Assembly (NCBI RefSeq): GCF_035285525.1
Contig: NZ_JAYKGW010000047.1
Location: 8,149 to 40,148, forward strand
Length of the DNA stretch: 32,000 nucleotides
From: Okeania sp.
GTDB lineage: Bacteria > Cyanobacteriota > Cyanobacteriia > Cyanobacteriales > Microcoleaceae
Direction: 5' to 3'
The position numbers and the translations under genes are program-made. Each line of letters opens with the position of its first letter. Positions within the stretch are counted from its first letter, which is position 1. This document shows, in pieces, positions 19,070 through 31,743 of the stretch. Below the pieces are notes generated by a model, which saw only the letters and a list, made by a program, of their open reading frames with translations, searched no databases and was not told the DNA's origin.

Positions 19070-20410
19070 ATGAAAATTGCTTATCTTGACTGTCCCACTG
19101 GTATTGCGGGCGATATGTGTCTGGGTGCTTTAGTCCATGCTGGCGTTCCTCTGGAGTATATCATGGAAAAACTAAATCTTTTGGGTATTGCCCAAGAATA
19201 TGAATTAAGTACAGAAAAAGTTCATCGTAATGGTATAATGGCGACGAAATTTCATGTGAAGTTAATTCATGCTAATCCTGAAGATGGAGAACCTTTAACT
19301 TTTGATAGTCACCATCACCACCATCACGATACTGAAAATGATTCTAGCGCTGAAAAAAATCATCATGCTCACAACCGTCATTTACCAGAAATTGAAGCAT
19401 TAATTAAAAAAGCAGGATTGCCGGAACGTGCTGAAGTTTGGAGTTTGGCTGTTTTTCGTAAGTTGGCAGCAGCAGAAGGTGCTGTACATGGTATTGCTCC
19501 TGAGAAAGTGCATTTTCACGAAGTTGGAGCAACTGATGCTATTATTGATATTGTGGGAACTTGTTTGGGTTTAGATTGGTTAAATATTGATGAGTTATAT
19601 TGTTCGCCTTTGCCTACTGGTGGCGGAACTGTGAGAGCAGCTCATGGTAGATTACCTGTACCTGTACCAGCAGTATTAAAACTTTGGGAGTTACATAATG
19701 TTCCGGTTTATAGTAATGGTATAGAAAAGGAGTTGTGTACTCCGACGGGTAGTGCGATCGCTTGTGCTATTGCAAGAGGTTTTTGTTCGTATCCGTCGAT
19801 GTCTTTACAATGTGTTGGTTTGGGAGCGGGTTCCCAGAATTTAGCTATTCCTAATATTTTGCGTTTGTGGATTGGTGAAAGTAAAGCTCAGACTCAACAT
19901 TCTCATATTAAAAAATCTGATGTTCCTACTACGGAGGTTCCATACAATGTTTCTACCGAAAATTCGCATCTGGAAACTGTGTCGGTATTAGAAACTCAGA
20001 TAGATGATTGTTCTCCCCAAGCGATCGCTTATACTTTTGATACTTTGTTGGCTGCGGGTGCTTTGGATGTGTTTACTCAACCTGTGACAATGAAAAAAAA
20101 TCGGTTGGGAGTATTACTGACTGTTATTTGTACAGCAGAAAATTTGTCTGTTTGTGAGGAGGTAATATTTAGGGAGACTACGACTTTGGGTATTCGTCAG
20201 TCTCTGCAACAAAGAAGTATTTTGGCACGAGAAATTCATCAATTAGAAACGGAGTATGGAACAATCAGGGTAAAGGTCGGGAAAATGGGAAATAAAATTG
20301 TGAATGTGCAACCAGAATATGAAGATTGTGCGAAGGTAGCTAGACGGGAAAATATGCCGTTGATGGAAGTACAGAAAATGGTATTACAAAATTGGAAGAA
20401 AAGGGAGTAG
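19070..20410 (+). CDS. larC: nickel pincer cofactor biosynthesis protein LarC (nickel insertion)
   Basis: 446-aa ORF. MKIAYLDCPTGIAGDMCLGALVHAGVP is the canonical LarC N-terminus. It also has a His-rich insert (HHHHHHD...HHAHNRH), HEVGATDAIIDIVG and the C-terminal LarC2-like half. Confidence 0.9.
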   Translation: MKIAYLDCPTGIAGDMCLGALVHAGVPLEYIMEKLNLLGIAQEYELSTEKVHRNGIMATKFHVKLIHANPEDGEPLTFDSHHHHHHDTENDSSAEKNHHAHNRHLPEIEALIKKAGLPERAEVWSLAVFRKLAAAEGAVHGIAPEKVHFHEVGATDAIIDIVGTCLGLDWLNIDELYCSPLPTGGGTVRAAHGRLPVPVPAVLKLWELHNVPVYSNGIEKELCTPTGSAIACAIARGFCSYPSMSLQCVGLGAGSQNLAIPNILRLWIGESKAQTQHSHIKKSDVPTTEVPYNVSTENSHLETVSVLETQIDDCSPQAIAYTFDTLLAAGALDVFTQPVTMKKNRLGVLLTVICTAENLSVCEEVIFRETTTLGIRQSLQQRSILAREIHQLETEYGTIRVKVGKMGNKIVNVQPEYEDCAKVARRENMPLMEVQKMVLQNWKKRE

Positions 20411-20480
20411 GGAGTTATTTCAGTTATCAGTTATCAGCACCTCTGTCTGAAGCCTCTGGCTTGAAATACTGAGTTGAATC

Positions 20481-20574
20481 AGGACTTACGCAAAGGTACT
20501 GTACTATCTATAGAGTTCAAAAACTATTGCACAAGAGTTTTAGGCGCTACATATAGCGTCTCTGCGTAAGTCCT
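20481..20574. repeat. small palindromic dispersed repeat (AGGACTTACGCA...TGCGTAAGTCCT)
   Basis: Canonical termini, 70 nt downstream of the larC stop. It is a close relative of 7217-7312. Confidence 0.9.
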
Positions 20575-20730
20575 ATGAATATTTTTTTCATCCCCTTGAA
20601 AGAAGAGGCTTTAGACCCAATTTTTTAGTAAACCCACCCCTAGCCCCTCCCAGGAGGAGAGTTTAGAATGAAAGTTATAAACCTCCAAATCTTTTTAACC
20701 CTTCTGCCTTTTGCCTCCTACCTTCTGTCT

Positions 20731-21678
20731 TCAGACTTGAACTATATCCACGCGATCGCCTACGGTTAAACCTAATTCTATTGCTCTACCACCTCTCAAC
20801 TCAATCACCCGATCGACAGGAATATCTGGTCCATAAGTAGGGCAAGGTTCAGTTTCACAGGGAGGCAAATTAGAAAAAATCGCCTGTATTTCCCCATTCC
20901 TCAGAAACACCATATCTAAATTAATAAATACATTTCTCATCCAAAAATTCACCGTGCGAGGAGGAGCGATAGAAAATAACATTCCCCGCTCGTCGGGCAA
21001 CTCAGTTCTAAACATCAAACCAACGGCTTGCTCTAACGGAGTTTGCGCCACCTCCAAATTAACAACTTGACCAGAAAAATTTGCCTGTGCTGAAATTGGT
21101 AACATTTGCCCTAACTCCACTTCACCGAACAATGAACTAAAATTTGATTCTTCAAGATTTGTCACTCCTAATAAAACTGCCAAATATTCTCCTGTTACTC
21201 CATCTTGAATAATAATATTATCCTCAGCAGGCAAAATATTCAACTCACTAAATTGTAACCCTCCAGTTAGAATTAAGCGATCGCTACCATTCCGAAAATC
21301 AGTAATTACATCTGCATCTGCCAAATTTACCCCACCAGTAGAGAATAAATCTTCACGTCTACCAATAGCAAACAAATCGTCTCCTTCGCCCCCAGTCATT
21401 GTATCCGCACCCAAGTTCCCAATTAACCAGTCTGCTCCCAAATCTCCAGAAATAAAGTCATTTCCTTGCCCACCAAAAATAGTATCGGCATCTTGCCCAC
21501 CAAAAATAGTATCATCCCCCTGATTACCTTGGAGAACATCGGTTCCTTGGTTGCCAAAAATTTGGTCATTACCCCCGAAACTTTGAACAATATCTTTACT
21601 TGCTAAAGCAGGGATAATATCACTATCGGGAGTGCCACTGAGAAAGTCAATATTTAGTGTGCCTTGAATATTAGTCAT
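20731..21678 (-). CDS. RTX-type calcium-binding repeat protein fused to a C-terminal DUF192 domain
   Basis: The N-terminal half has GGxGxD nonapeptide runs (FGGNDQIFGNQGTDVLQGNQGDDTIFGGQDADTIFGGQGNDFISGDLGAD...). The C-terminal part reads AQTPLEQAVGLMFRTELPDERGMLFSI...FWMRNVFINLDMVFL...PPCETEPCPTY...VIELRGG...GDRV, which is the DUF192 signature. Confidence 0.75.
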   Translation of the reverse strand: MTNIQGTLNIDFLSGTPDSDIIPALASKDIVQSFGGNDQIFGNQGTDVLQGNQGDDTIFGGQDADTIFGGQGNDFISGDLGADWLIGNLGADTMTGGEGDDLFAIGRREDLFSTGGVNLADADVITDFRNGSDRLILTGGLQFSELNILPAEDNIIIQDGVTGEYLAVLLGVTNLEESNFSSLFGEVELGQMLPISAQANFSGQVVNLEVAQTPLEQAVGLMFRTELPDERGMLFSIAPPRTVNFWMRNVFINLDMVFLRNGEIQAIFSNLPPCETEPCPTYGPDIPVDRVIELRGGRAIELGLTVGDRVDIVQV

Positions 21679-21809
21679 TTTAGTTATCAGTTATAAGTTA
21701 TTAATAATACCATTAAAATACTGAATTGAAGATTTTTTATCCTCTTATTAAGAGTAGAATATTATCTTGATTTTTTGGTCAATAAAACAATATCTCTTCT
21801 TTGTTAAAT

Positions 21810-21980
21810 GGTAAGCATTGTTAAATTATAAGCATTCAGCTCAAGGGCAATAAAAATGAATGATAAGCATTCTTTTAATTTCTACTTTTCAATCATATCT
21901 CTGATATTGTTAAACTATACATATTTATAGCCAGAAATCATAGATTTACTTCAAAAGCTGATAGCTGACTGCTGAAATTG
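21810..21980. mobile_element. MITE-like element, GTAAGCATT family (inverted relative to 3749-3935, one end eroded)
   Basis: GGTAAGCATTG..TAAGCATTCAGCTCAAGGGCAATAAAAATGAATG...TTCAAAAGCTGATAGCTGACTGCTGAA is colinear with the reverse complement of 3749-3935. Confidence 0.6.
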
Positions 21981-22198
21981 TATCTATCTAATTTAGGATT
22001 TGCCTAGTTTTCTTTTAATGATAGTTCATTAATGGATAATGGATAATTACTTCTCCCTAAAAGTTAGAGGATTGGCGCTTAAGTAAAAGATTTATTTTTT
22101 CCCTATCCAAGGGGAGGCTTCAAGGGGCGAATTATTTAATTATTTAATTGTTTAATTATTTAATTGTTTAATTATTAATTATTTCGCTAAACTATTTT

Positions 22199-22388
22199 GG
22201 TAAGCAGTCAGCTATCAGAAGAGTGCTTTTAGTTAGCAATAAAAGCAATATTTAATAGAGAAACGAAAAATATTGCTAAAAAAGTCAGCTCCAAAGTCTA
22301 TGTTCATTTAAACTTCGTCCTTCAGCACAAGTTATTATTGCTGATAGCTAATAGCTGTTTGCGCAGCATTCCGCAGGAAATGCTTACC
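22199..22388. mobile_element. MITE-like element, GTAAGCATT family
   Basis: Ends are GGTAAGCAGTCAGCTATCAG / GCTGATAGCTAATAGCTGTTTGCGCAGCATTCCGCAGGAAATGCTTACC. Confidence 0.7.
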
Positions 22389-22503
22389 TATTTTGAATTT
22401 TCTAGCTTGTGCAAGTCGTCAAACTGTCACATTAACTTAGAAAACTTTCAAAACCTAATTTAACTTTAGTAATTAAGTAGCATTTACTGAAAATATAATT
22501 ATT

Positions 22504-22773
22504 ATGAATAATGAACAAACGTCCATAATCTTTAAAGTCAAAATCCACTATATAAACGGAGAAACTCAAACTTTTGAAGTCTGCGGACAAGGATGGGATA
22601 ATGTTGATATTGCCAGTCGTCTTTTTCAAATACAAAAATCTGATAAATTAATTTTGCAATTAACAGATAATAGTCTTCAAGTTATTCCCTACAGCAGCAT
22701 TTTATATTTAACAGTTGACCCTGCACCTCCTAAACTACCAAAAGATATAATTACTGGAGCGACTTTATTATAA
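22504..22773 (+). CDS. hypothetical protein (89 aa)
   Basis: Its composition is balanced compared with the overlapping minus-strand ORF. No family is recognised. It is bracketed by two MITE copies. Confidence 0.45.
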   Translation: MNNEQTSIIFKVKIHYINGETQTFEVCGQGWDNVDIASRLFQIQKSDKLILQLTDNSLQVIPYSSILYLTVDPAPPKLPKDIITGATLL

Positions 22774-22940
22774 GTAAGCATTTAGCTATCAGCCATTAGT
22801 AGTCAGCTCTCAGCAAAAAGAGTAATTTTAAATGGAATATAAACTTTAAAACCAGCTTTTGTACTTAAGATTTAATTTTGGCTCAATGAGTCAAGCTTTT
22901 ATTTAAAATTAAAAGCAATAGCTGATAACTGATTGCTTAC
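22774..22940. mobile_element. MITE-like element, GTAAGCATT family
   Basis: Ends are GTAAGCATTTAGCTATCAGCCATTAGTAGTCAGC / GCTGATAACTGATTGCTTAC. It starts at the nucleotide right after the TAA of ORF 22504..22773. Confidence 0.7.
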
Positions 22941-22950
22941 ATAATTTTGA

Positions 22951-23066
22951 GTAACACAGCCTGGAAGGCTGTAATAACCAGGATACTAAACAGATAATTA
23001 CTAGAGCAAATTTATCATACAGTAACACAGCCTTCCAGGCTGTAACAACCTGGAAGGTTGTGTTAC
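22951..23066. repeat. cluster of GTAACA-hairpin repeats
   Basis: GTAACACAGCCTGGAAGGCTGTAATAACC ... GTAACACAGCCTTCCAGGCTGTAACAACCTGGAAGGTTGTGTTAC. Related units occur at 13311-13365 and 23360-23378. Confidence 0.7.
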
Positions 23067-23434
23067 AAATTTACCCTAATTAAATTAATTATTTTTCCCA
23101 ATTTTTACCGAAAAATTTTGGTAATTACGTCTCCTTTTTTAAGAAGATAAAAAAAAGAAAATTCCGTATTTCAAGCCTATTTATTCTAAGAGGTAATGAT
23201 AACTTTTAACGCAGTTCTTCCGGAAGAGGCTAACTGTTAAGGTAGTTCCTCCGGAGGAGGCTAAATGATAACTGAAATGACGCACTACTTTTCTGGAGAT
23301 TACTATCTAAAATGAAAGAGATAAATCAATACTCAGATAAATTATTTATATTTAGTAATACAGGCTTCCAACCTGTAAAAAGCAGGATGCTTCTCTTACA
23401 TACTTATTGAGGCTAAAGGAGATTATATTTCAAA

Positions 23435-23989
23435 ATGAAAGAGATAAATCAATACTCAGATAAATTATTTCTAGTCCGAAATTTACTCGATAATGAACAA
23501 TGCGATAAATACATTGAAATGGCTGAATCAATTGGATTTGAAGAAGCAAGTATTACAACAAACTTCGGTTCTGTTATGGATAAAAGTATTAGAAATAACG
23601 ATCGGGTAATTTGGGATGATGAAAAGTTAGCAAAAGAATTATTTGAAACAACAAAATCTTACATTAAAAATCCTTGCAAAGGATTATATTGTACTGGTTT
23701 AAATGAGAGATTTAGGTTTTATAAATATTCTCCTGGTCAAAAATTTGGTTGGCATTCTGATGGTTATTATGAAAGAGAAAATGGCGAACGTTCGAGATGG
23801 ACTTTATTGTTTTATCTAAATGATGGTTATGAAGGTGGTGCAACGAAATTTAGAACTACAGAAGTAAGGGGAAATAAGGGAGATGCTTTGTTTTTTTTCC
23901 ATCGTCAATTACATTGTGGTGACATGGTAAAGTCAGGCATTAAATATGTTTTACGGACAGATATTATGTATGAAGCAAAGGTTAAATAA
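23435..23989 (+). CDS. 2OG-Fe(II) oxygenase (prolyl 4-hydroxylase-like)
   Basis: 184-aa ORF. It has the HxD...H facial triad candidates (GWHSDGYY and QLHCG), a downstream basic residue (KYVLRTD) and double-stranded beta-helix size. Confidence 0.8.
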   Translation: MKEINQYSDKLFLVRNLLDNEQCDKYIEMAESIGFEEASITTNFGSVMDKSIRNNDRVIWDDEKLAKELFETTKSYIKNPCKGLYCTGLNERFRFYKYSPGQKFGWHSDGYYERENGERSRWTLLFYLNDGYEGGATKFRTTEVRGNKGDALFFFHRQLHCGDMVKSGIKYVLRTDIMYEAKVK

Positions 23990-24318: not shown

Positions 24319-24406
24319 GTAATAACTAAATTTTGCTAGGGCGGGTATCTTGCCCGCGTTTGTTTACCTCATCAAAGTAGAATCTAATGTATCTTTTCCT
24401 AATACT

Positions 24407-25714
24407 ATGAAAACATCATCTTTTCTAAATTTAACTATTGGATTATCTCTAATAATTAATTTAATTGCGGCAATAATAATCAGCTCTTCATTACAATATG
24501 CAGATTTAATTCACGTTATTACTATTGGTTCAATTATTTTATTAAGTTGGTTTCTGTTACCGAAAATTTTGCCTCTTCAAAAGAGTACATATGGCGCAAA
24601 TAATGGTCTATATGATTTTGGTCTGGTTCCTAGTTTCTTATCGCTTGGCTTATTGCATGAGGTATTTTATGGATATCCTAAAAGTGCTCCTAGCTACTTT
24701 AAAAAAATATGTCTATTTACGCCATTTTTAGCAATACTTTTCTGGTTATATAGTTTAGGTTTCACTGCTTTTCCTTTAGTATTAAAAATCATTTGGTTAT
24801 TGCTAACAATACCTATGATTTTTATCCTTCATCTTGGTGCTGATAAAGTAAGTTATGCAATGTGGATACCGACTTTTCTGTTGCCAATATTACAAGCGAT
24901 CGCTCTGATAACAGGTATTATAAGATTTTTTCTTTTAGATATATCAACTAAGGTAGAAATAGGGCAAAGTCTGTTAATCGTAATTGGTTTTGCCATATTA
25001 ACAGTCCTATGGGCAGGAAGTCTGGAAATAATATCAAATGCTCAGAGAAATAAAAGTAAATTATTGTTAGATAATCCTAGAGTTTGTATTTTTGTCAGAG
25101 TTATTAATCCTGAAAATCAAGACTGCAAAGTAAATTCTACTGCTCTAAATAAACAGCGTGGATTTTTACATGAATATGCAAACAGCCAAGGATATAAACT
25201 AGATCGTATTCAATATACTGTAGATAATGGTTATACAGAAGAAACAGATGAATTAAAACAATATCGCCAAGCATTTATATCTTTATTGGAAAATCCAAAT
25301 TATAATATATTTCTGGTAGAAAAAGAAGAAAGTTTAGCTAGGTTTGGCATTGAAGAAGCTAAACGTATCCTCAAAGAAAATGGCAAATATCTTGAAGTAT
25401 TTAATCAAGAAATTGAAAAATCAAGACAAATAGAAAATAAGCAGATTTTTACTATTTCTATAATATTGCACACAATGGTTATTATCGGCGGATTAATAGG
25501 AGGTTGGCGGTTAAATTTGTTCATTTATTTTTATGCTCCTTTGGTATTCTTCTGGATTCTTTGGCTATTTTTAGTCATAATATTTACTATGCTAGTTATT
25601 ATGCTATTAAAAGATAACAAAGATAACCCTTACCCTTACCCTATATTTGTGGCTTCTTTAATTCCCTTATTAATATTACTAGCATTCGGTTTCAGAGTAT
25701 TTATCAACAGTTAA
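24407..25714 (+). CDS. polytopic membrane protein with a central degenerate (catalytically dead) IS607-type serine-recombinase domain
   Basis: The ORF is open from the TTG at 24350, but that codon lies in a GC-rich dispersed repeat, so the ATG at 24407 (MKTSSFLNL...) is preferred. About 6-7 hydrophobic helices precede the soluble core, which spans track residues 243-352 (nt 25076-25405). The core reads RVCIFVRVINPENQ...ALNKQRGFLHEYANSQGYKL...VDNGYTEE...FLVEKEESLARFGIEEAKRILKENGKYLEVFN. Three hydrophobic helices follow it. Confidence 0.7.
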   Translation: MKTSSFLNLTIGLSLIINLIAAIIISSSLQYADLIHVITIGSIILLSWFLLPKILPLQKSTYGANNGLYDFGLVPSFLSLGLLHEVFYGYPKSAPSYFKKICLFTPFLAILFWLYSLGFTAFPLVLKIIWLLLTIPMIFILHLGADKVSYAMWIPTFLLPILQAIALITGIIRFFLLDISTKVEIGQSLLIVIGFAILTVLWAGSLEIISNAQRNKSKLLLDNPRVCIFVRVINPENQDCKVNSTALNKQRGFLHEYANSQGYKLDRIQYTVDNGYTEETDELKQYRQAFISLLENPNYNIFLVEKEESLARFGIEEAKRILKENGKYLEVFNQEIEKSRQIENKQIFTISIILHTMVIIGGLIGGWRLNLFIYFYAPLVFFWILWLFLVIIFTMLVIMLLKDNKDNPYPYPIFVASLIPLLILLAFGFRVFINS

Positions 25715-25727
25715 CAATTAATTCAAA

Positions 25728-25894
25728 ATGGATAATCAATCGTAAGAAAAATTATTAAATCAACTAATAAATCCCCTAAAAGCTAAAGACTGGAAAACGG
25801 CTAATGAGATTATTTTTTGTCTTTTTTTAGAACTATTCCTGAAGATATTAGTAACTATAGATGAATTCATAATCAGGATTTACATAAGATTAAA
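25728..25894 (+). pseudogene. dead duplicate of the 5' end of the GUN4/receiver gene
   Basis: ATGGATAATCAATCGTAAGAAAAATTATTAAAT...GGAAAACGGCTAATGAGATTA...CCTGAAGATATTAG...ATCAGGATTTACATAAGATTAAA aligns base for base with 26346-26513. It has a stop at codon 6 and indels. Confidence 0.7.
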
Positions 25895-26093: not shown

Positions 26094-26339
26094 ATGATTT
26101 ATCCTGAGCCTCGTATTACTTTAATTGTTTTCTCACTTTTAGGTTTAATTGCTTTTTATTTTCCTTTGATATTCTGGATTATTTGCCTATCGTTAATAAT
26201 AATATTTACTATACTACTTATTGCAATACTCATATATTGTGGTCTGGCTCACTTTATATTTCTCTTTCCTCTGATTCCCTTATTAAGATTGCTAGCATTC
26301 GGTTTCATAATATTTATCTTGTCAACAGTTAACAACTAA
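26094..26339 (+). CDS. 81-aa three-helix membrane protein, paralog of the C-terminus of 24407..25714
   Basis: FPLIFWIICLSLIIIFTILLIAIL...LIPLLRLLAFGFIIFILSTVNN parallels APLVFFWILWLFLVIIFTMLVIML...LIPLLILLAFGFRVFINS. The DNA homology continues through the stop into the next gene. Confidence 0.55.
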   Translation: MIYPEPRITLIVFSLLGLIAFYFPLIFWIICLSLIIIFTILLIAILIYCGLAHFIFLFPLIPLLRLLAFGFIIFILSTVNN

Positions 26340-26345
26340 TTCATC

Positions 26346-29300
26346 ATGAATAATCAATCATCAGAAAAATTATTAAATAAACTAAGAAATCGCCTAGAAG
26401 CTAAAGATTGGAAAACGGCTAATGAGATTACTTTTTGTCTTTTTTTTGAAACTATTCCTGAAGATATTAGCAACCCTGGATGGATTCATTATCAGGATTT
26501 ACATAAGATTAAAGATGAAGTTTTAAAAGAAAGCGATCGCCTCTGGGTATATCATTCTGAAGGACGTTTTGGTTTTAGTGTTCAATGGCAAATTTTCTAT
26601 CAATTATATCTAGAATTATATCTGGAAGGAAAGCATAGGGATTATATGATGTTAGAAGAAACTTTTGCAGAAAAAGTTGGTCGTATTAGAGCTGCTGGTT
26701 ATGATATTAAAGAAGTTAATTTTAGTTTAGATTTTCCTCAAGGATATTTACCTTGGTTTCACTGGTATGATTCTCAAAACTATAAATTTCGTAGTGGCAT
26801 AACGGGAGGTGGTGGTGTGGGTTGGGAAGCAATTTTTTATGTAGCAGAATTATTAGAAAGAAGTGGTGCAATACCTCCAGAAGGAAAAGTATGGAACCGT
26901 CAAGAAATAATAGAAAAAATAAAAGAAGGTAATCCTAATTTTAGTCGAGGTAATTTAGTAGGAATTGATTTACAAGGGTTAGATTTATCTAATGCAAATT
27001 TTCTCGGTGCAGATTTAAGTCAAAGTAATCTTGCTAAAGCAAAATTAAATAAAACTAACTTTTATTCTGCTAATCTCTATGAAGCTAATTTATCTCAAAT
27101 AGAAGGAATCAATACTTATTTCAGAAAGGCTAAATTGGAAGGTACAATTTTTTGGCAAGCTCAACTTGTTAATGTTGACTTGACTAAAGTTTCTGCATTT
27201 AGAGCAATATTTGATGAAAGTAAATGGGAAAATGTGAATGCAACTGAGGGAGACTTTTTTGCAGCAAATTTTTATTGGGTTATCTGCCAAAATACATCTT
27301 TTTCCCAAGCCGATATTTCCTATACAAGTTGGCAAGAAGCAATTTTAAAAGACTGTAATTTTGCAGAGGTAGTTAAAAATAAAGCTAGACTCAAAATGAC
27401 TAAATTTGTCGGCAAAAATTGGAATAGTCAATTAGACAAGTTAACAACTTCTAAGACAAAGACTTTAGCAAATCTTCCTTTAGCAAAATATAAACCTATA
27501 GATAAGAGATCGCCCACTATTTTTATTATTGATGATTCAATTACAGTTAGAGAATTATTATCTATGACTTTTACAAAAGCGGGATATAAAGTTGTTTTAG
27601 CTAGAGATGGGCAAGATGCTTGGGAACAATTAAAAGTTGGTTTAGTTTGTGATTTTATTCTTTCAAATATCGAAATGCCTCGGATGGATGGTATCGAGTT
27701 TTTATCAAGAGTTAAAAAAGATGAAAAACTAAAAGATATTCCCTTTGCACTTTTGACGAGTAGAGGTGCAAATAGAATGCGTACTAATAACTGGTGGGAT
27801 GAACGTATTGTTGCTCGCTTTACTAAACCTTATATTGAGCAAAATTTATTAGAAACTGTTGCTAATACATTAAAAATATTGCCAGAAAATAAGCAACAAA
27901 CTTTAGCCAAAGAAATTACAAATAAACGACCTACTATTTTAATTGTTGATGATTCTATTGTAGCCAGAGAATTATTAACTATGACTTTTACCAAAGCTGG
28001 ATATGATGTTATTAAAGCCAAAGATGGTAAAGATGCTTTAGATAGATTAAATACTGGCGTAGTTTGCGATTTTATTTTTTCAAATATTGAAATGCCTAAG
28101 ATGGATGGTTTCCAATTTTTGGCAGAAGTTAAGCAAGATGAAAAACTCAAAAATATTCCTTTTGCATTTATATCTAGTACAAATAGAAATAAAAATAGAA
28201 TCAGTAGTAGCTCTTGGAATCAAAGTATTGTTGCTCACTTTACTAAACCTTTTATAGAGGAACAATTATTAGAAACAGTTACTAAAGCATTAAATAATTT
28301 GCCAGAAAATAAGGAAGCAACTTTAGCCAAAGAAATTATAGATAAACGATCTACCATTTTTATTGTTAATTATTCAAATACTGTCAGAAAATTATTAAGG
28401 ATAGCTTTGACAAAAGCCGGATATAAAATTGTTGAAGCTAGAGATGGGCGAGATGCTTGGGAACAACTAAAAGCAGGTTTAATTTGCCATTTTATTTTCT
28501 GTGATACGGAAATGCCTCGGATGGATGGTTTTGAGTTTTTATCAAGAATTAAACAAGATGAAAAGCTCAACAATATTCCCCTGGCATTTCTCAGTAGTCA
28601 AGCTAAAAGGAGAAAAGATATTAGCTTAGAATTAGGTGCGGTTCCTCACTTTACTAAACCTTTTATAGAGGAACAATTATTAGAAACAGTTACTAAGACA
28701 TTAAATAATTTTCCAGAAAATCAGGAACAAACTTTAGCCAAAGAAATTACAGATAAACGACCTACTATTTTAATTGTTCATTATTCAAATACTGTCAGAA
28801 AATTATTAAGGATAGCTTTGACAAAAGCCGGATATAAAATTGTTGAAGCTAGAGATGGGGGAGATGCTTGGGAACAACTAAAAGCAGGTTTAATTTGCCA
28901 TTTTATTTTCTGTGATACGGAAATGCCTCGGATGGATGGTTTTGAGTTTTTATCAAGAATTAAACAATATGAAAAGCTCAACAATATTCCCCTGGCATTT
29001 CTCAGTAGTCAAGGTAAAAGGAGAAAAGATATTAGTTTAAAATTAGGTGCTATTGCTCACTTTACTATACCTTTTATAGAGGAACAATTATTAGAAACAG
29101 TTGCTAATACATTAAGTAATTTGCCAGAAAATCAAGATGAAACTTTAGCCGAAAACTGGAAAAATAAACCACCGACTATTTTAATTATTGATTCTTCAAT
29201 TACAGTCAGAAAATTATTTGTAGGATATAAAACAGCCAGAAAATTATTTGTAGGATATAAAATTGTTGAAGCTAGAGATGGGGGAGATGCTTGGGAACAA

Positions 29301-30578
29301 TTACAAGCAGGTTTAAATTGTGATTTTATTTTCTGCGATACCGAAATGCCGCGAATGGATGGTTTCGAGTTTTTATCAAGAATTAAACAAGATGAAAAGC
29401 TCAAAAATATTCCCCTGGCATTTCTCAGCAGTCAAGTTAACAGGAAAAAAGATATTAGCTTAGAATTAGGTGCGGTTGCTCACTTTACTAAACCTTTTAT
29501 AGAGAAAGATTTATTAGAAACAGTTACTAAGACATTAAATAATTTGCCAGAAAATCAAGATGAAACTTTAGCCGAAAAATGGAAAAATAAAACGCCGACT
29601 ATTTTAATTATTGGTACTTCTTTTGATAAACGGCAAGAATTAAGTCACTCTTTTATCAAAGCAGGTTATCAAGTATTCAGAGATATCCTTGGTACTGATA
29701 GTTGGCAAATATTACAAAGCAACTTAAATAATATTGATTTTATTCTATCCGATCTAGGTAATTTAGAATTATTAGAAAAAGTCAAACAGGATGAAGCGTT
29801 ACATAATATTCCTTTGGCAATTATCCACACTAAAGAAATCCTTCCTTTTATTCGAGAACAATTTGATATAGTTGATTACTTTACTTATCCTTATGTAGAA
29901 CAAAAATTGTTAAAATCTATTGCTAAAATTATAGGTAGAGAAGCAGAATATTTAAGCTTTTTGGAAAACTCAATAGAAAGAGAAAAGGAAAATATAAATT
30001 CTGGTAAACTGAGACAATCTCAAACTCGTTTTTTTGTCGTTGGATTAAATTTAGAACAACGGAAACAATTAGTAACTTTGTTCAGATTTAAACCAAACTT
30101 ATTCTGCCATTTTTTTCCAGAAAATCAACTTCTTAATTCTGGTGCAGATAAATTTAATACTCAATTATTAATATCTCAACTACAAGAAAGAATTATAAAT
30201 AATATTAGCCCTCCATCTTACTTCAATAATTTTTATAATTTATCAAACACTTATAACTGTACTTTCATCCCAGATAATTTACTAAATTATTTTGCCGAAA
30301 TTTCTGATAATTCATCTTCTTGTTCCCTATACCTTCTGATTCAGATTAATGTACTTAAAAGTTTAAGCAAACTAAACTTGAAAGAAGCTTTACCTCAATT
30401 TTCTACTATTGTTATTGATGATAAAAATAAACTTGATATTATTTCTTCTGATTTCTTAAAACAACTGCAACAAAATTGGAATACAAAAGCCTATATTACC
30501 AACCTTAAAGCTCCAGATATTTTGGAAACATTTGCCTCTGTAGTTAATGGTGAAGCACCAATCGAAAAAAAAAATTAA
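26346..30578 (+). CDS. 1410-aa GUN4 domain / pentapeptide-repeat / six tandem receiver (REC) domain protein
   Basis: GUN4-like block at aa 8-175 (WKTANEIT...DLHKIKDEVLKESDRLWVYHSEGRFGFSVQWQIF). Pentapeptide repeats at aa 197-345 (NLVGIDLQGLDLSNANFLGADLSQSNLAKAKLNKTNFYSANLYEANLSQ...). REC-like units start at aa 390, 529, 669, 806, 943 and 1084, each matching PTILI(V/I)DDS..VR.LL...KAGY.V..A.DG.DAW..L......F....EMPRMDGFEFL...K.DEKL..IP.A.LSS.....FTKPF. The uncharacterised tail at aa 1199-1410 has faint REC-like blocks. Confidence 0.9.
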   Translation: MNNQSSEKLLNKLRNRLEAKDWKTANEITFCLFFETIPEDISNPGWIHYQDLHKIKDEVLKESDRLWVYHSEGRFGFSVQWQIFYQLYLELYLEGKHRDYMMLEETFAEKVGRIRAAGYDIKEVNFSLDFPQGYLPWFHWYDSQNYKFRSGITGGGGVGWEAIFYVAELLERSGAIPPEGKVWNRQEIIEKIKEGNPNFSRGNLVGIDLQGLDLSNANFLGADLSQSNLAKAKLNKTNFYSANLYEANLSQIEGINTYFRKAKLEGTIFWQAQLVNVDLTKVSAFRAIFDESKWENVNATEGDFFAANFYWVICQNTSFSQADISYTSWQEAILKDCNFAEVVKNKARLKMTKFVGKNWNSQLDKLTTSKTKTLANLPLAKYKPIDKRSPTIFIIDDSITVRELLSMTFTKAGYKVVLARDGQDAWEQLKVGLVCDFILSNIEMPRMDGIEFLSRVKKDEKLKDIPFALLTSRGANRMRTNNWWDERIVARFTKPYIEQNLLETVANTLKILPENKQQTLAKEITNKRPTILIVDDSIVARELLTMTFTKAGYDVIKAKDGKDALDRLNTGVVCDFIFSNIEMPKMDGFQFLAEVKQDEKLKNIPFAFISSTNRNKNRISSSSWNQSIVAHFTKPFIEEQLLETVTKALNNLPENKEATLAKEIIDKRSTIFIVNYSNTVRKLLRIALTKAGYKIVEARDGRDAWEQLKAGLICHFIFCDTEMPRMDGFEFLSRIKQDEKLNNIPLAFLSSQAKRRKDISLELGAVPHFTKPFIEEQLLETVTKTLNNFPENQEQTLAKEITDKRPTILIVHYSNTVRKLLRIALTKAGYKIVEARDGGDAWEQLKAGLICHFIFCDTEMPRMDGFEFLSRIKQYEKLNNIPLAFLSSQGKRRKDISLKLGAIAHFTIPFIEEQLLETVANTLSNLPENQDETLAENWKNKPPTILIIDSSITVRKLFVGYKTARKLFVGYKIVEARDGGDAWEQLQAGLNCDFIFCDTEMPRMDGFEFLSRIKQDEKLKNIPLAFLSSQVNRKKDISLELGAVAHFTKPFIEKDLLETVTKTLNNLPENQDETLAEKWKNKTPTILIIGTSFDKRQELSHSFIKAGYQVFRDILGTDSWQILQSNLNNIDFILSDLGNLELLEKVKQDEALHNIPLAIIHTKEILPFIREQFDIVDYFTYPYVEQKLLKSIAKIIGREAEYLSFLENSIEREKENINSGKLRQSQTRFFVVGLNLEQRKQLVTLFRFKPNLFCHFFPENQLLNSGADKFNTQLLISQLQERIINNISPPSYFNNFYNLSNTYNCTFIPDNLLNYFAEISDNSSSCSLYLLIQINVLKSLSKLNLKEALPQFSTIVIDDKNKLDIISSDFLKQLQQNWNTKAYITNLKAPDILETFASVVNGEAPIEKKN
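27513..29939 (+). repeat. six tandem coding repeats of 411-423 bp (the REC units)
   Basis: Units start at 27513, 27930, 28350, 28761, 29172 and 29595. 28371-28620 and 28782-29031 differ at only about 3 positions by eye. Confidence 0.9.
29202..29261 (+). repeat. in-frame 30-bp tandem duplication inside REC unit 5
   Basis: ACAGTCAGAAAATTATTTGTAGGATATAAA is followed by ACAGCCAGAAAATTATTTGTAGGATATAAA (1 mismatch). It encodes RKLFVGYKTA + RKLFVGYKIV. Confidence 0.95.
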
Positions 30579-30603
30579 AGATCAAAAATTAAAATAATTA
30601 AAT

Positions 30604-30813
30604 GCAGAATTAACAAAAATATTTTTAGATTTCGACAAAAGTAAAAAACTAATCGAGAAAGAAAAAATCAAAGAAATTAGCGATGAATAATTAATCCAAA
30701 TATTCTTAGATTTTGATAAAGAAGCTAAAAATACTTCTGAGAGTCAAAAAACAATTGAAAAGGAAATTAGCGATGCAGAACTAATCAAAATCCTCTTAGA
30801 TTTTAATAAATAA
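30604..30813 (+). repeat. degenerate tandem repeat (about 90 bp x 2.4) with coding-like periodicity
   Basis: One frame reads AELTKIFLDFDKSKKLIEKEKIKEISDE*LIQIFLDFDKEAKNTSESQKTIEKEISDAELIKILLDFNK*. There is no start codon and an internal stop. Confidence 0.6.
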
Positions 30814-31209
30814 GCTAAAAATACTTTTTTCTGTAAAATCAAGACAGCAGACTTTCGTAGTAATATTTAATTATAGCTCAATTAATAAACCTTTGATCCG
30901 AGACTAAACACAATAGCTGATGCCTAACAGCTAAATACCTAATTAATGAAAACCGATCATATATTTTATCGAATTTTCCAAGAATTACCTGAAACCTTCT
31001 TACGGTTCCCGAAAAATCAGTTGTAGGAATACTTACCACAAAATTCCAATAATTATCGTTTTGATTCAGTAGAATTAAAACAGACTTCCTTTAGAATAGA
31101 CGGGGTCTTTTTATCCCAAGATACTGACAAAAAAGTATACAGCTTCCCATTTTAAAAGTATCAAAAGAATAAGATTCTGTATATTATTTTTATGACTTCA
31201 GTGAAAGTT

Positions 31210-31249
31210 ACTGATAACTAATAGCTGATAACTGATAACTGATAACTGA
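31210..31249. repeat. STRR heptamer array (CTGATAA)
   Basis: CTGATAACTAATAGCTGATAACTGATAACTGATAACTGAA lies inside the disrupted Rpn-family gene. Confidence 0.9.
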
Positions 31250-31520
31250 AAAGGTGTGTTATGATTATCTTTAAAAGTCGTAGTTTTGAACCAACAGACA
31301 GAAACAGGGAATCTGTACAACATTTTTTAGATACTCCCCTCATCAAGCGCATCTATTTGAATGAATTAAAAGTGAGTGAAACAACTCCCTTAGGTGTACA
31401 AATCGTTCAATTAGTTGTAGAAAAAAAGAAACAATTTTTGGAGAGAGCAACCTTATTAATTAATCAAGTAAGACAACAATTTACCAATGAAAATGATCGG
31501 TTGCAATTACTTAACTTATT

Positions 31521-31743
31521 GGTAAGCATTTCCTCCGGAATGCTGCGCAAACAGCCGTCAGCCATCAGCTATCAGCTATTTTTTTTGGTTTTAAATGTAA
31601 ATCTCATCTTTAAGACTATACTTTATAAACATTTCTCTTGATATAAAACTTGATAATGGATAGCTTTAAAAGCAGAGTCTTGTTCCTGTTAACGAAGTTC
31701 CGACCTAGGAGGCTAGCTGAAGTGCTAATAGCTGAATGCTTCC
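31521..31743. mobile_element. MITE-like element, GTAAGCATT family, inserted in the Rpn-family pseudogene
   Basis: Ends are GGTAAGCATTTCCTCCGGAATGCTGCGCAAACAGCCGTCAGCCATCAGCTATCAGC / GCTGAAGTGCTAATAGCTGAATGCTTCC. The interior matches 11620-11937. Confidence 0.75.

Follow-up and report, generated by a model that had tools for sequence, protein, structure and literature searches.

Within a 32-kb stretch of Okeania sp. DNA (32,000 nucleotides, hereafter the window), we analyzed a complete open reading frame (ORF) whose 1410-amino-acid product is 100% identical to the NCBI entry P0001, "response regulator [Okeania sp.]". The protein combines a GUN4-like domain and pentapeptide repeats with six tandem CheY-like receiver units and a conserved C-terminal domain, and none of the six units (0/6) carries the complete catalytic set of a receiver. 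The catalytic residues were read at the positions of D12, D13, D57, T87, and K109 of CheY in a MAFFT alignment with E. coli CheY, PhoB, and Spo0F, and are given below in this order, a canonical receiver being DD/D/[ST]/K. The ortholog referred to is P0002, encoded in a cyanobacterial metagenome-assembled genome (MAG) from a tar biofilm. The features of the gene are the following:

26346..30578, plus strand: complete ORF, 1410 aa
26370..26759 (aa 9-138), plus strand: GUN4-like domain (Pfam PF05419, E = 5e-18)
26937..27239 (about aa 198-298), plus strand: pentapeptide-repeat region (Pfam PF00805 and PF13599)
27513..27929 (from aa 390), plus strand: unit 1 with linker, aspartate-less receiver, DD/N/T/K; unit 1 of the MAG ortholog is canonical (DD/D/S/K)
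27645..27670, plus strand: probable gene-conversion patch in unit 1, holding the Ser-Asn codons TCA AAT
27930..28349 (from aa 529), plus strand: unit 2 with linker, aspartate-less receiver, DD/N/S/K; identical state in the ortholog
28350..28760 (from aa 669), plus strand: unit 3 with linker, NY/D/S/K
28761..29171 (from aa 806), plus strand: unit 4 with linker, HY/D/S/I; most recent duplicate of unit 3
29172..29594 (from aa 943), plus strand: unit 5 with linker, DS/D/S/K; helix 1 rebuilt
29202..29262, plus strand: 30-bp tandem duplication, two copies, within helix 1 of unit 5
29595..29960 (from aa 1084), plus strand: unit 6, GT/D/H/Y; 15-nt in-frame deletion of the beta3-alpha3 loop
30018..30578, plus strand: conserved C-terminal domain with no assigned family; alternating beta/alpha elements predicted

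The Response_reg family of Pfam (PF00072) scored 301 bits on the protein (cut-off 30.2), with five stretches that cover units 1 to 5; unit 6 was recognized as a receiver only by phmmer, which matched it to H. pylori CheY1 (E = 2e-4). In the DNA, the units form a tandem repeat of 411 bp, five copies of which match at 83%. Short ORFs of 61-106 aa with TTG starts lie antisense to the array (27830-29404, minus strand), one per repeat unit; in view of this once-per-unit recurrence and the TTG starts, we take them to be by-products of the repeat. In the protein itself, Pfam detected no domain of the Hpt, HATPase, or CheW type.

The acidic pair following strand beta1 (D12 and D13) is present in units 1 and 2 and absent from units 3 to 6, where the two positions read NY, HY, DS, and GT, respectively. 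The acceptor aspartate at the end of beta3 is retained in units 3 to 6, although never together with the other four residues, and is replaced by asparagine at aa 441 of unit 1 and aa 580 of unit 2, the Asn codon of unit 1 being AAT at 27666-27668. The beta4 position is Thr in unit 1, Ser in units 2 to 5, and His in unit 6, and the beta5 lysine is kept in units 1, 2, 3, and 5 and replaced by Ile in unit 4 and by Tyr in unit 6, so that each unit is deprived of at least one catalytic residue. The phmmer alignments agree with MAFFT: the Asn of unit 1 shares a column with the acceptor of H. pylori CheY1, which is Ala in the solved chain 3h1f_A and Asp in the otherwise matching chain 3gwg_A, and in unit 3 the N-Y is matched to D12-D13 of CheY, and the D, S, and K to D57, T87, and K109. 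The original prediction, made from the DNA sequence alone, had assigned the units in just this way: acidic pair and lysine with Asn at the acceptor in units 1 and 2, acceptor Asp without the acidic pair in units 3 and 4 with a further loss of the lysine in unit 4, DS, Asp, and Lys with a rearranged helix 1 in unit 5, and GT, Asp, and Tyr with a lost loop in unit 6, leaving the full quintet in no unit. All of this was borne out, including the exact position of the AAT codon. The alignment with CheY, PhoB, and Spo0F placed no Asp at the acceptor of units 1 and 2, no acidic pair in units 3 and 4, and no full quintet in any unit, and the solved-structure alignments of units 1 and 3 agree; the His at beta4 of unit 6 adds a defect to the list.

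A 2025 review defines a receiver that is missing any one of the five residues as a pseudo-receiver (PsR) and one missing the aspartate as an aspartate-less receiver (ALR) (PMC12632262). All six units are PsRs in this sense, which agrees with the predicted array of pseudo-receivers in place of a conventional phosphorelay; units 1 and 2 are also ALRs, a class that does not take in units 3 to 6 because their acceptor Asp is present. The further suggestion that the units act in trans or in pairs gained no support, as no feature favors a swap between units. Composite active sites formed by neighboring units were also considered and rejected: of the combinations considered, only the DD of unit 2 with the D/S/K of unit 3 would be complete, and no supporting feature was found. 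In known receivers, all five catalytic residues are supplied by one domain.

The two most altered units were compared with their counterparts at the DNA level. In unit 5, 4 nt stand in place of 22 nt in helix 1 (-6 aa) and are followed by the 30-bp duplication (+10 aa), a net gain of 4 aa. The AlphaFold2 model of this unit, the only unit modeled, reached a predicted local distance difference test score (pLDDT) of 85 for the whole unit and of about 70 within helix 1, and consists of five strands and five helices in alternation with helix 1 split in two. Foldseek gave query-normalized TM-scores of 0.80-0.86 to RR468 and CheY. According to this model, unit 5 keeps the receiver fold. In unit 6, the position of the gap is ambiguous in the phmmer alignment; in the DNA alignment with the orthologous unit, the acceptor GAT is kept and 15 nt of the following loop are deleted in frame.

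The only full-length ortholog found, P0002, is 75% identical to the window protein and has four units, of which u1 is fully canonical (DD/D/S/K) and the others read DD/N/S/K (u2), DY/D/S/K (u3), and TN/D/H/K (u4). The unit types occur in matching order in this independent assembly, and unit 6 of the window has its ortholog in the degenerate unit that ends the MAG protein. A search of GTDB genome contigs returned the same MAG only, and two metagenome scans, one with protein and one with a DNA pattern, yielded no further ortholog. An ortholog from a third strain is present on a 1.4-kb ENA scaffold (L003) that ends about 320 bp into the gene, before the array. The more distant relatives P0003 (Nodularia), P0004 (Okeanomitos), P0121, and P0160 have a single receiver with a complete DD/D/[ST]/K set; P0003, P0004, and P0160 also carry an N-terminal SLOG-like domain. 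The window protein belongs with these in one family of GUN4, pentapeptide, receiver, and C-terminal domains, since both its N-terminal module and its C-terminal domain are shared: over the first 389 aa it has 56% identity to P0121, and the C-terminal domain (last ~190 residues) recurs in the single-receiver relatives P0003, P0004, and P0121, with identities of 73% to P0002, 39% to P0003, and 34% to P0004 and 32 invariant columns.

In a neighbor-joining tree of units, those of the window protein (W) and the MAG ortholog (M) form one clade with the single receivers of P0003 and P0004, and W_u3, W_u4, and W_u5 group with M_u3. The closest sequences outside the family, at 55-59% identity, are C-terminal receivers of cyanobacterial CheA/ChpA-like kinases, and a protein search with a single unit returned CheA-type receivers, not close orthologs. 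A paralogous family from Trichodesmium and Okeania (P0025, P0026, and P0028) has two receivers, a canonical one and, after it, one of the Asn type in which DD, S/T, and K are retained; the two units are about equally conserved between members (62-87% for the Asn-type unit and 71-86% for the canonical one). An acceptor Asn recurs elsewhere in the same receiver clade, in P0270 (aa 52) and P0282 (aa 165) as well as in P0025, P0026, and P0028 (aa ~892-896), and the other four catalytic residues are retained in all checked members of this set.

Comparison with the ortholog separates old defects from recent ones. Three defects are older than the ortholog split: the acceptor Asn of u2-type units, the Tyr that stands second in the acidic pair of u3-type units, and the degeneration of the last unit. 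In the window lineage, the u3 type was expanded to three copies, with a synonymous divergence (dS) of only 0.049 between units 3 and 4. Further changes in this lineage affected the first acidic position (D->N in unit 3 and D->H in unit 4), the second acidic position of unit 5 (Tyr->Ser), the lysine of units 4 (K->I) and 6 (K->Y), and the acceptor Asp of unit 1. The original prediction had asked of the Asn and NY/HY substitutions whether they are conserved in orthologs or strain-specific, and the answer is divided: the Asn of unit 2, the Tyr, and the degenerate last unit are conserved, whereas the Asn of unit 1, the Asn and His of units 3 and 4, and the two lysine replacements are confined to the window strain. 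Of the canonical residues inferred for the common ancestor, 5/23 were lost in the window lineage and 0/15 in that of the ortholog (Fisher p = 0.14).

The acceptor of unit 1 appears to have been overwritten by a short tract. The segment 27645-27670 of unit 1, GTTTGTGATTTTATTCTTTCAAATAT, is identical to unit 2 of the ortholog and differs from unit 1 of the ortholog at 7/26 positions. Three adjacent derived bases at 27664-27666, which turn TGY GAT into TCA AAT, are common to both u2 copies; ortholog u1 and every u3-type unit keep the ancestral TGY GAT. Bases specific to unit 1 at 27642 and 27681 bound the tract, and the loss of the Asp looks like a probable gene-conversion patch of 5-38 nt donated by unit 2. 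A run test over all diagnostic sites gave p = 0.06, with the longest run lying elsewhere, and since this test is not significant alone, the case for conversion rests on the three adjacent shared derived bases.

The array, or the Ser-Asn patch of unit 1, could also be a chimera created by short-read assembly of a metagenome bin, which we regard as very improbable. The source name "Okeania sp." and a contig of 40 kb suggest a MAG, units 3 and 4 share an exact run of 107 bp, and the third strain is seen only in a 1.4-kb scaffold ending well short of the array, all of which would leave room for such an artifact. However, the longest exact run between any other two units does not exceed 52 bp, and a chimera in unit 1 is unlikely because it has no exact run above 20 bp in common with unit 2, a length at which an assembler would not be misled. 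Bases specific to unit 1 moreover flank the patch within 20 nt, and the independently assembled ortholog has the same unit types in the same order.

The pattern of defects is not one of independent chance events, the shared defects having been inherited or copied between units. The original prediction had described the units as incomplete in two complementary ways; this part is not supported, because the two defect types correspond to two ancestral unit lineages, both present in the ortholog, that were spread by duplication and conversion, and the pattern reflects descent, not design. As far as the compared sequences go, the evolutionary path to an array made up of pseudo-receivers only appears clear.

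Selection was estimated from the ratio of non-synonymous to synonymous substitution rates (dN/dS), calculated by the Nei-Gojobori method (NG86) between the window gene and P0002. The ratio was 0.41 for the N-terminal part and 0.49 for the C-terminal part, and among the units it was 0.41 (unit 1), 0.66 (unit 2), 0.72 (unit 3), 0.64 (unit 4), 0.48 (unit 5), and 0.84 (unit 6). Two neighboring genes gave 0.21 and 0.50. Pooled over units 1, 2, 5, and 6, the ratio was 0.61 and below 1 (Fisher p = 4e-4). All indels in the array (5/5) are in frame. With the single-receiver relatives as outgroups, no acceleration of the window lineage relative to the ortholog was seen in the derived residues of the N-terminal part (20 versus 16), unit 1 (6 versus 10), and the C-terminal part (15 versus 13). 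These estimates indicate that the array is under weak purifying selection. Taken together, the sequence data suggest that the fold and the reading frame are weakly constrained and that the catalytic residues are under no constraint in the window lineage.

An early stage of decay would give part of the same picture: function would have been lost once conversion had hit the last canonical acceptor, and the ORF would still be intact because the loss is recent. The loss of five canonical residues in the window lineage and none in the ortholog fits this scenario, as do the 25 non-synonymous against four synonymous differences between units 3 and 4 (dN/dS 1.65), the K->I of unit 4, the K->Y of unit 6, the scrambled helix 1 of unit 5, the several units with dN/dS of 0.64-0.84 that is not distinct from 1, and a region in flux, with a 618-bp segmental duplication upstream and a synteny break downstream. 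Decay is nevertheless harder to reconcile with a 4.2-kb ORF free of stops and frameshifts in DNA of about 30% G+C, with indels that are without exception multiples of three, and with N- and C-terminal domains at dN/dS 0.41-0.49 that show no excess of derived changes in the window lineage. The 30-bp duplication in unit 5 restores a helix that had been shortened by 6 aa and looks compensatory. The pseudo-receiver types also predate the ortholog split and therefore persisted under selection for some time. We consider decay a possible but rather unlikely explanation.

The reading we favor, with moderate confidence, is that of a phosphorylation-independent pseudo-receiver array, a scaffold that would link the GUN4/pentapeptide part to the C-terminal domain as a folded spacer or a platform for binding. 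The gene product would be a cytoplasmic multidomain signaling protein with a sensor-like N-terminal part, from a family that is so far cyanobacterial only and is built from a GUN4-like domain, a pentapeptide beta-helix, a CheY-like receiver, and a C-terminal alpha/beta domain. GUN4 domains fused to diverse signaling modules have been proposed to be tetrapyrrole sensors in cyanobacteria (PMC7159879). Ancestrally, the protein would have had one canonical receiver, nearest to the C-terminal receivers of the CheA/ChpA-type kinases of cyanobacteria. In the Okeania lineage, this receiver would have been amplified in tandem and the extra copies turned into pseudo-receivers of three kinds: units with an acceptor Asn, units that lack the second Mg-binding acid, and the strongly degenerate last unit. 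In the window strain, the kind without the second Mg-binding acid was apparently amplified again to three copies, and the sole remaining canonical unit, unit 1, probably lost its acceptor codon to a short tract from the adjacent Asn-type unit. Canonical Mg-dependent phosphorylation on aspartate would then be impossible in every unit, the catalytic residues would drift freely, and the array, its receiver fold kept, would work phosphorylation-free as a structural or protein-binding spacer.

Several points weigh against this proposal. The loss of phosphorylation is argued from the identity of the residues alone, and the scaffold or binding role is an indirect deduction. Taken singly, units 2, 3, 4, and 6 are indistinguishable from neutral evolution (dN/dS 0.64-0.84, p >= 0.18), and the ratio of 1.65 between units 3 and 4 exceeds 1. 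The selection estimates are pairwise and weak because they involve one full-length ortholog only. No histidine kinase or Hpt gene that could supply a partner kinase occurs in the 32-kb window. Finally, the contig is probably a MAG assembly, on which the copy number of the near-identical units 3 and 4 depends.

The retention of DD, Ser/Thr, and Lys in units 1 and 2, with a serine at aa 440 and 579 directly preceding the Asn, raises the question of cryptic activity, in which these two units would be phosphorylated on that serine or would regain Asp by deamidation, and units 3 to 5, which keep the acceptor Asp, would accept phosphate inefficiently. The CheY D57N variant is reportedly activated through phosphorylation of Ser-56, a finding ascribed to Appleby and Bourret (1999). 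Ser-Asn is found in three apparently independent Asn-type receivers of the clade, namely the u2 lineage, P0270, and P0282; the close relatives of P0270, P0271 and P0272, have Cys-Asp. Serine precedes the acceptor in 69/378 Asp receivers (18%), which gives the recurrence of Ser-Asn a p of ~0.02 by our own estimate, assuming independent events. The Asn-type unit of P0025, P0026, and P0028, which keeps DD, S/T, and K, is likewise in line with such activity, and a survey of ALRs noted that a receiver with an acceptor Asn can rapidly revert to Asp (PMC4395418). Yet the independence of the Ser-Asn cases is unproven, conversion can spread such a patch, as in unit 1, and the P0025 family has Leu-Asn. 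Asn-Ile, moreover, is a slow context for deamidation, and Tyr or Ser at the second Mg-binding position of units 3 to 5 should abolish metal binding, judging from substitutions of CheY D13. We regard cryptic activity as improbable. Very improbable, in our view, is a bolder version in which the recurrent change from Cys-Asp to Ser-Asn is adaptive, the Ser-Asn units are natural counterparts of CheY D57N, and the array is a multi-state memory or integrator instead of dead scaffolding; phosphorylation of the preceding Ser or deamidation of the Asn would in that case give long-lived or irreversible receiver states.

A phosphorylation-independent array has parallels among known systems. The bacterial PsRs and ALRs, such as RitR (Asn53), FrzS, the PsR of CikA, and NblR, are likewise recognized as PF00072 receivers and have the receiver fold without one or more of the DD/D/T/K residues, and their activity is presumed to be phosphorylation-independent. 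Among the residues that replace the acceptor Asp in ALRs, Asn ranks second (16%), RitR being one case, and ALRs are enriched in cyanobacteria (PMC4395418). The window protein differs in that a single polypeptide strings together six such units and retains no canonical receiver, and in its partner domains, which are a GUN4-like domain, pentapeptide repeats, and the C-terminal domain in place of a DNA-binding output. Units 1 and 2 also keep an otherwise intact pocket, whereas RitR has additionally lost an acidic residue. In PleD-type REC-REC' proteins, a canonical receiver (REC) is followed by an adaptor pseudo-receiver (REC'). This tandem duplication, with an extra copy that is devoid of catalytic residues and acts as a structural adaptor, resembles the present array, and its pattern fits P0002 (one canonical and three pseudo-receivers) and P0025, P0026, and P0028 (one canonical and one Asn-type unit), each of which has a canonical receiver. 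The window protein, in contrast, has no canonical unit to drive a rearrangement, and it has six units and no GGDEF or other recognized output.

The motifs DDSxTVRELL, CDxEMPRMDG, and FTKPY of the units recur in the receivers of CheA/ChpA-like hybrid kinases from type IV pilus and phototaxis systems, but these receivers have the canonical residues, with C-D or S-D around the acceptor, and are fused to a kinase. The plant pseudo-response regulators (PRRs) are also receiver-derived, have lost phosphorylation on Asp, and act via protein-protein interaction (PMC12632262). The window units are likewise receiver-derived and have probably lost Asp phosphorylation, but the PRRs typically have Glu at the acceptor, a single pseudo-receiver, and a CCT output domain, and their evolutionary origin is unrelated. 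Of the roughly 2 million receiver domains on record, several percent are pseudo-receivers, whose mode of action in bacteria is largely unknown (PMC12632262). The window protein is an unusually large, all-degenerate case of this known phenomenon, and no new mechanism or kind of system is indicated.

The relatives form a natural series from one canonical receiver (the distant relatives) through one canonical and three pseudo-receivers (the ortholog) to six pseudo-receivers (the window strain). The final step can be followed down to a patch only a few nucleotides long, so that the locus would show duplication and gene conversion creating pseudo-receivers and extinguishing phospho-signaling. The ortholog pair should be a convenient system for asking what a receiver array does after the loss of phosphorylation; the value of the locus is limited, with only two full-length sequences, both from uncultured or poorly studied filamentous cyanobacteria.

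For the C-terminal domain, no match was found in Pfam or PDB; profile searches gave noise only (best E = 0.016 and 0.049), and a word-index search returned no match. An AlphaFold2 model based on a four-sequence alignment had a pLDDT of 43, too low for a fold search. The domain was also considered as a possible seventh receiver, which was not supported by hhalign against the receiver units (probability 7.5%).

The neighboring genes in the window are unrelated housekeeping genes, and a promoter and terminator scan gave no signal exceeding shuffled expectation. Synteny with the ortholog contig includes a 2-oxoglutarate (2OG)-Fe(II) oxygenase and a membrane protein upstream, and ends about 150 bp past the stop of the receiver gene. 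The membrane protein (24350-25714, plus strand) is a multi-pass protein of 454 aa with no Pfam family and is syntenic with a 370-aa ORF beside the ortholog; its cytoplasmic insert bears a weak resemblance, short of the cut-off, to the N-terminal domain of resolvases (PF00239, E = 0.014). The segments 25550-25894 and 26172-26513 belong to a segmental duplication in tandem, about 618 bp long and with 80-89% identity, in which the 3' end of the membrane-protein ORF is repeated together with the spacer and the ~170 nt that open the GUN4-receiver gene. It has left a relic 5' fragment of the latter gene at about 25711-25894 and an 81-aa ORF (26094..26339) that duplicates the C-terminal end of the 454-aa ORF. 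No duplicate of the gene 5' end was detected in the contig of the MAG ortholog, and a comparable extra copy is present in the third strain (L003).

Downstream of the receiver gene, about 680 bp without an ORF (30579-31260) precede a truncated DUF2887 gene (31261-31641, plus strand), which covers profile positions 97-183 of 200. On the ortholog contig (L001), a serine hydroxymethyltransferase gene lies downstream and an extra stand-alone GUN4 gene upstream; the same contig encodes a 909-aa protein with TPS and CHAT domains (19896-23528), with an IS605 OrfB/TnpB-like gene nearby.

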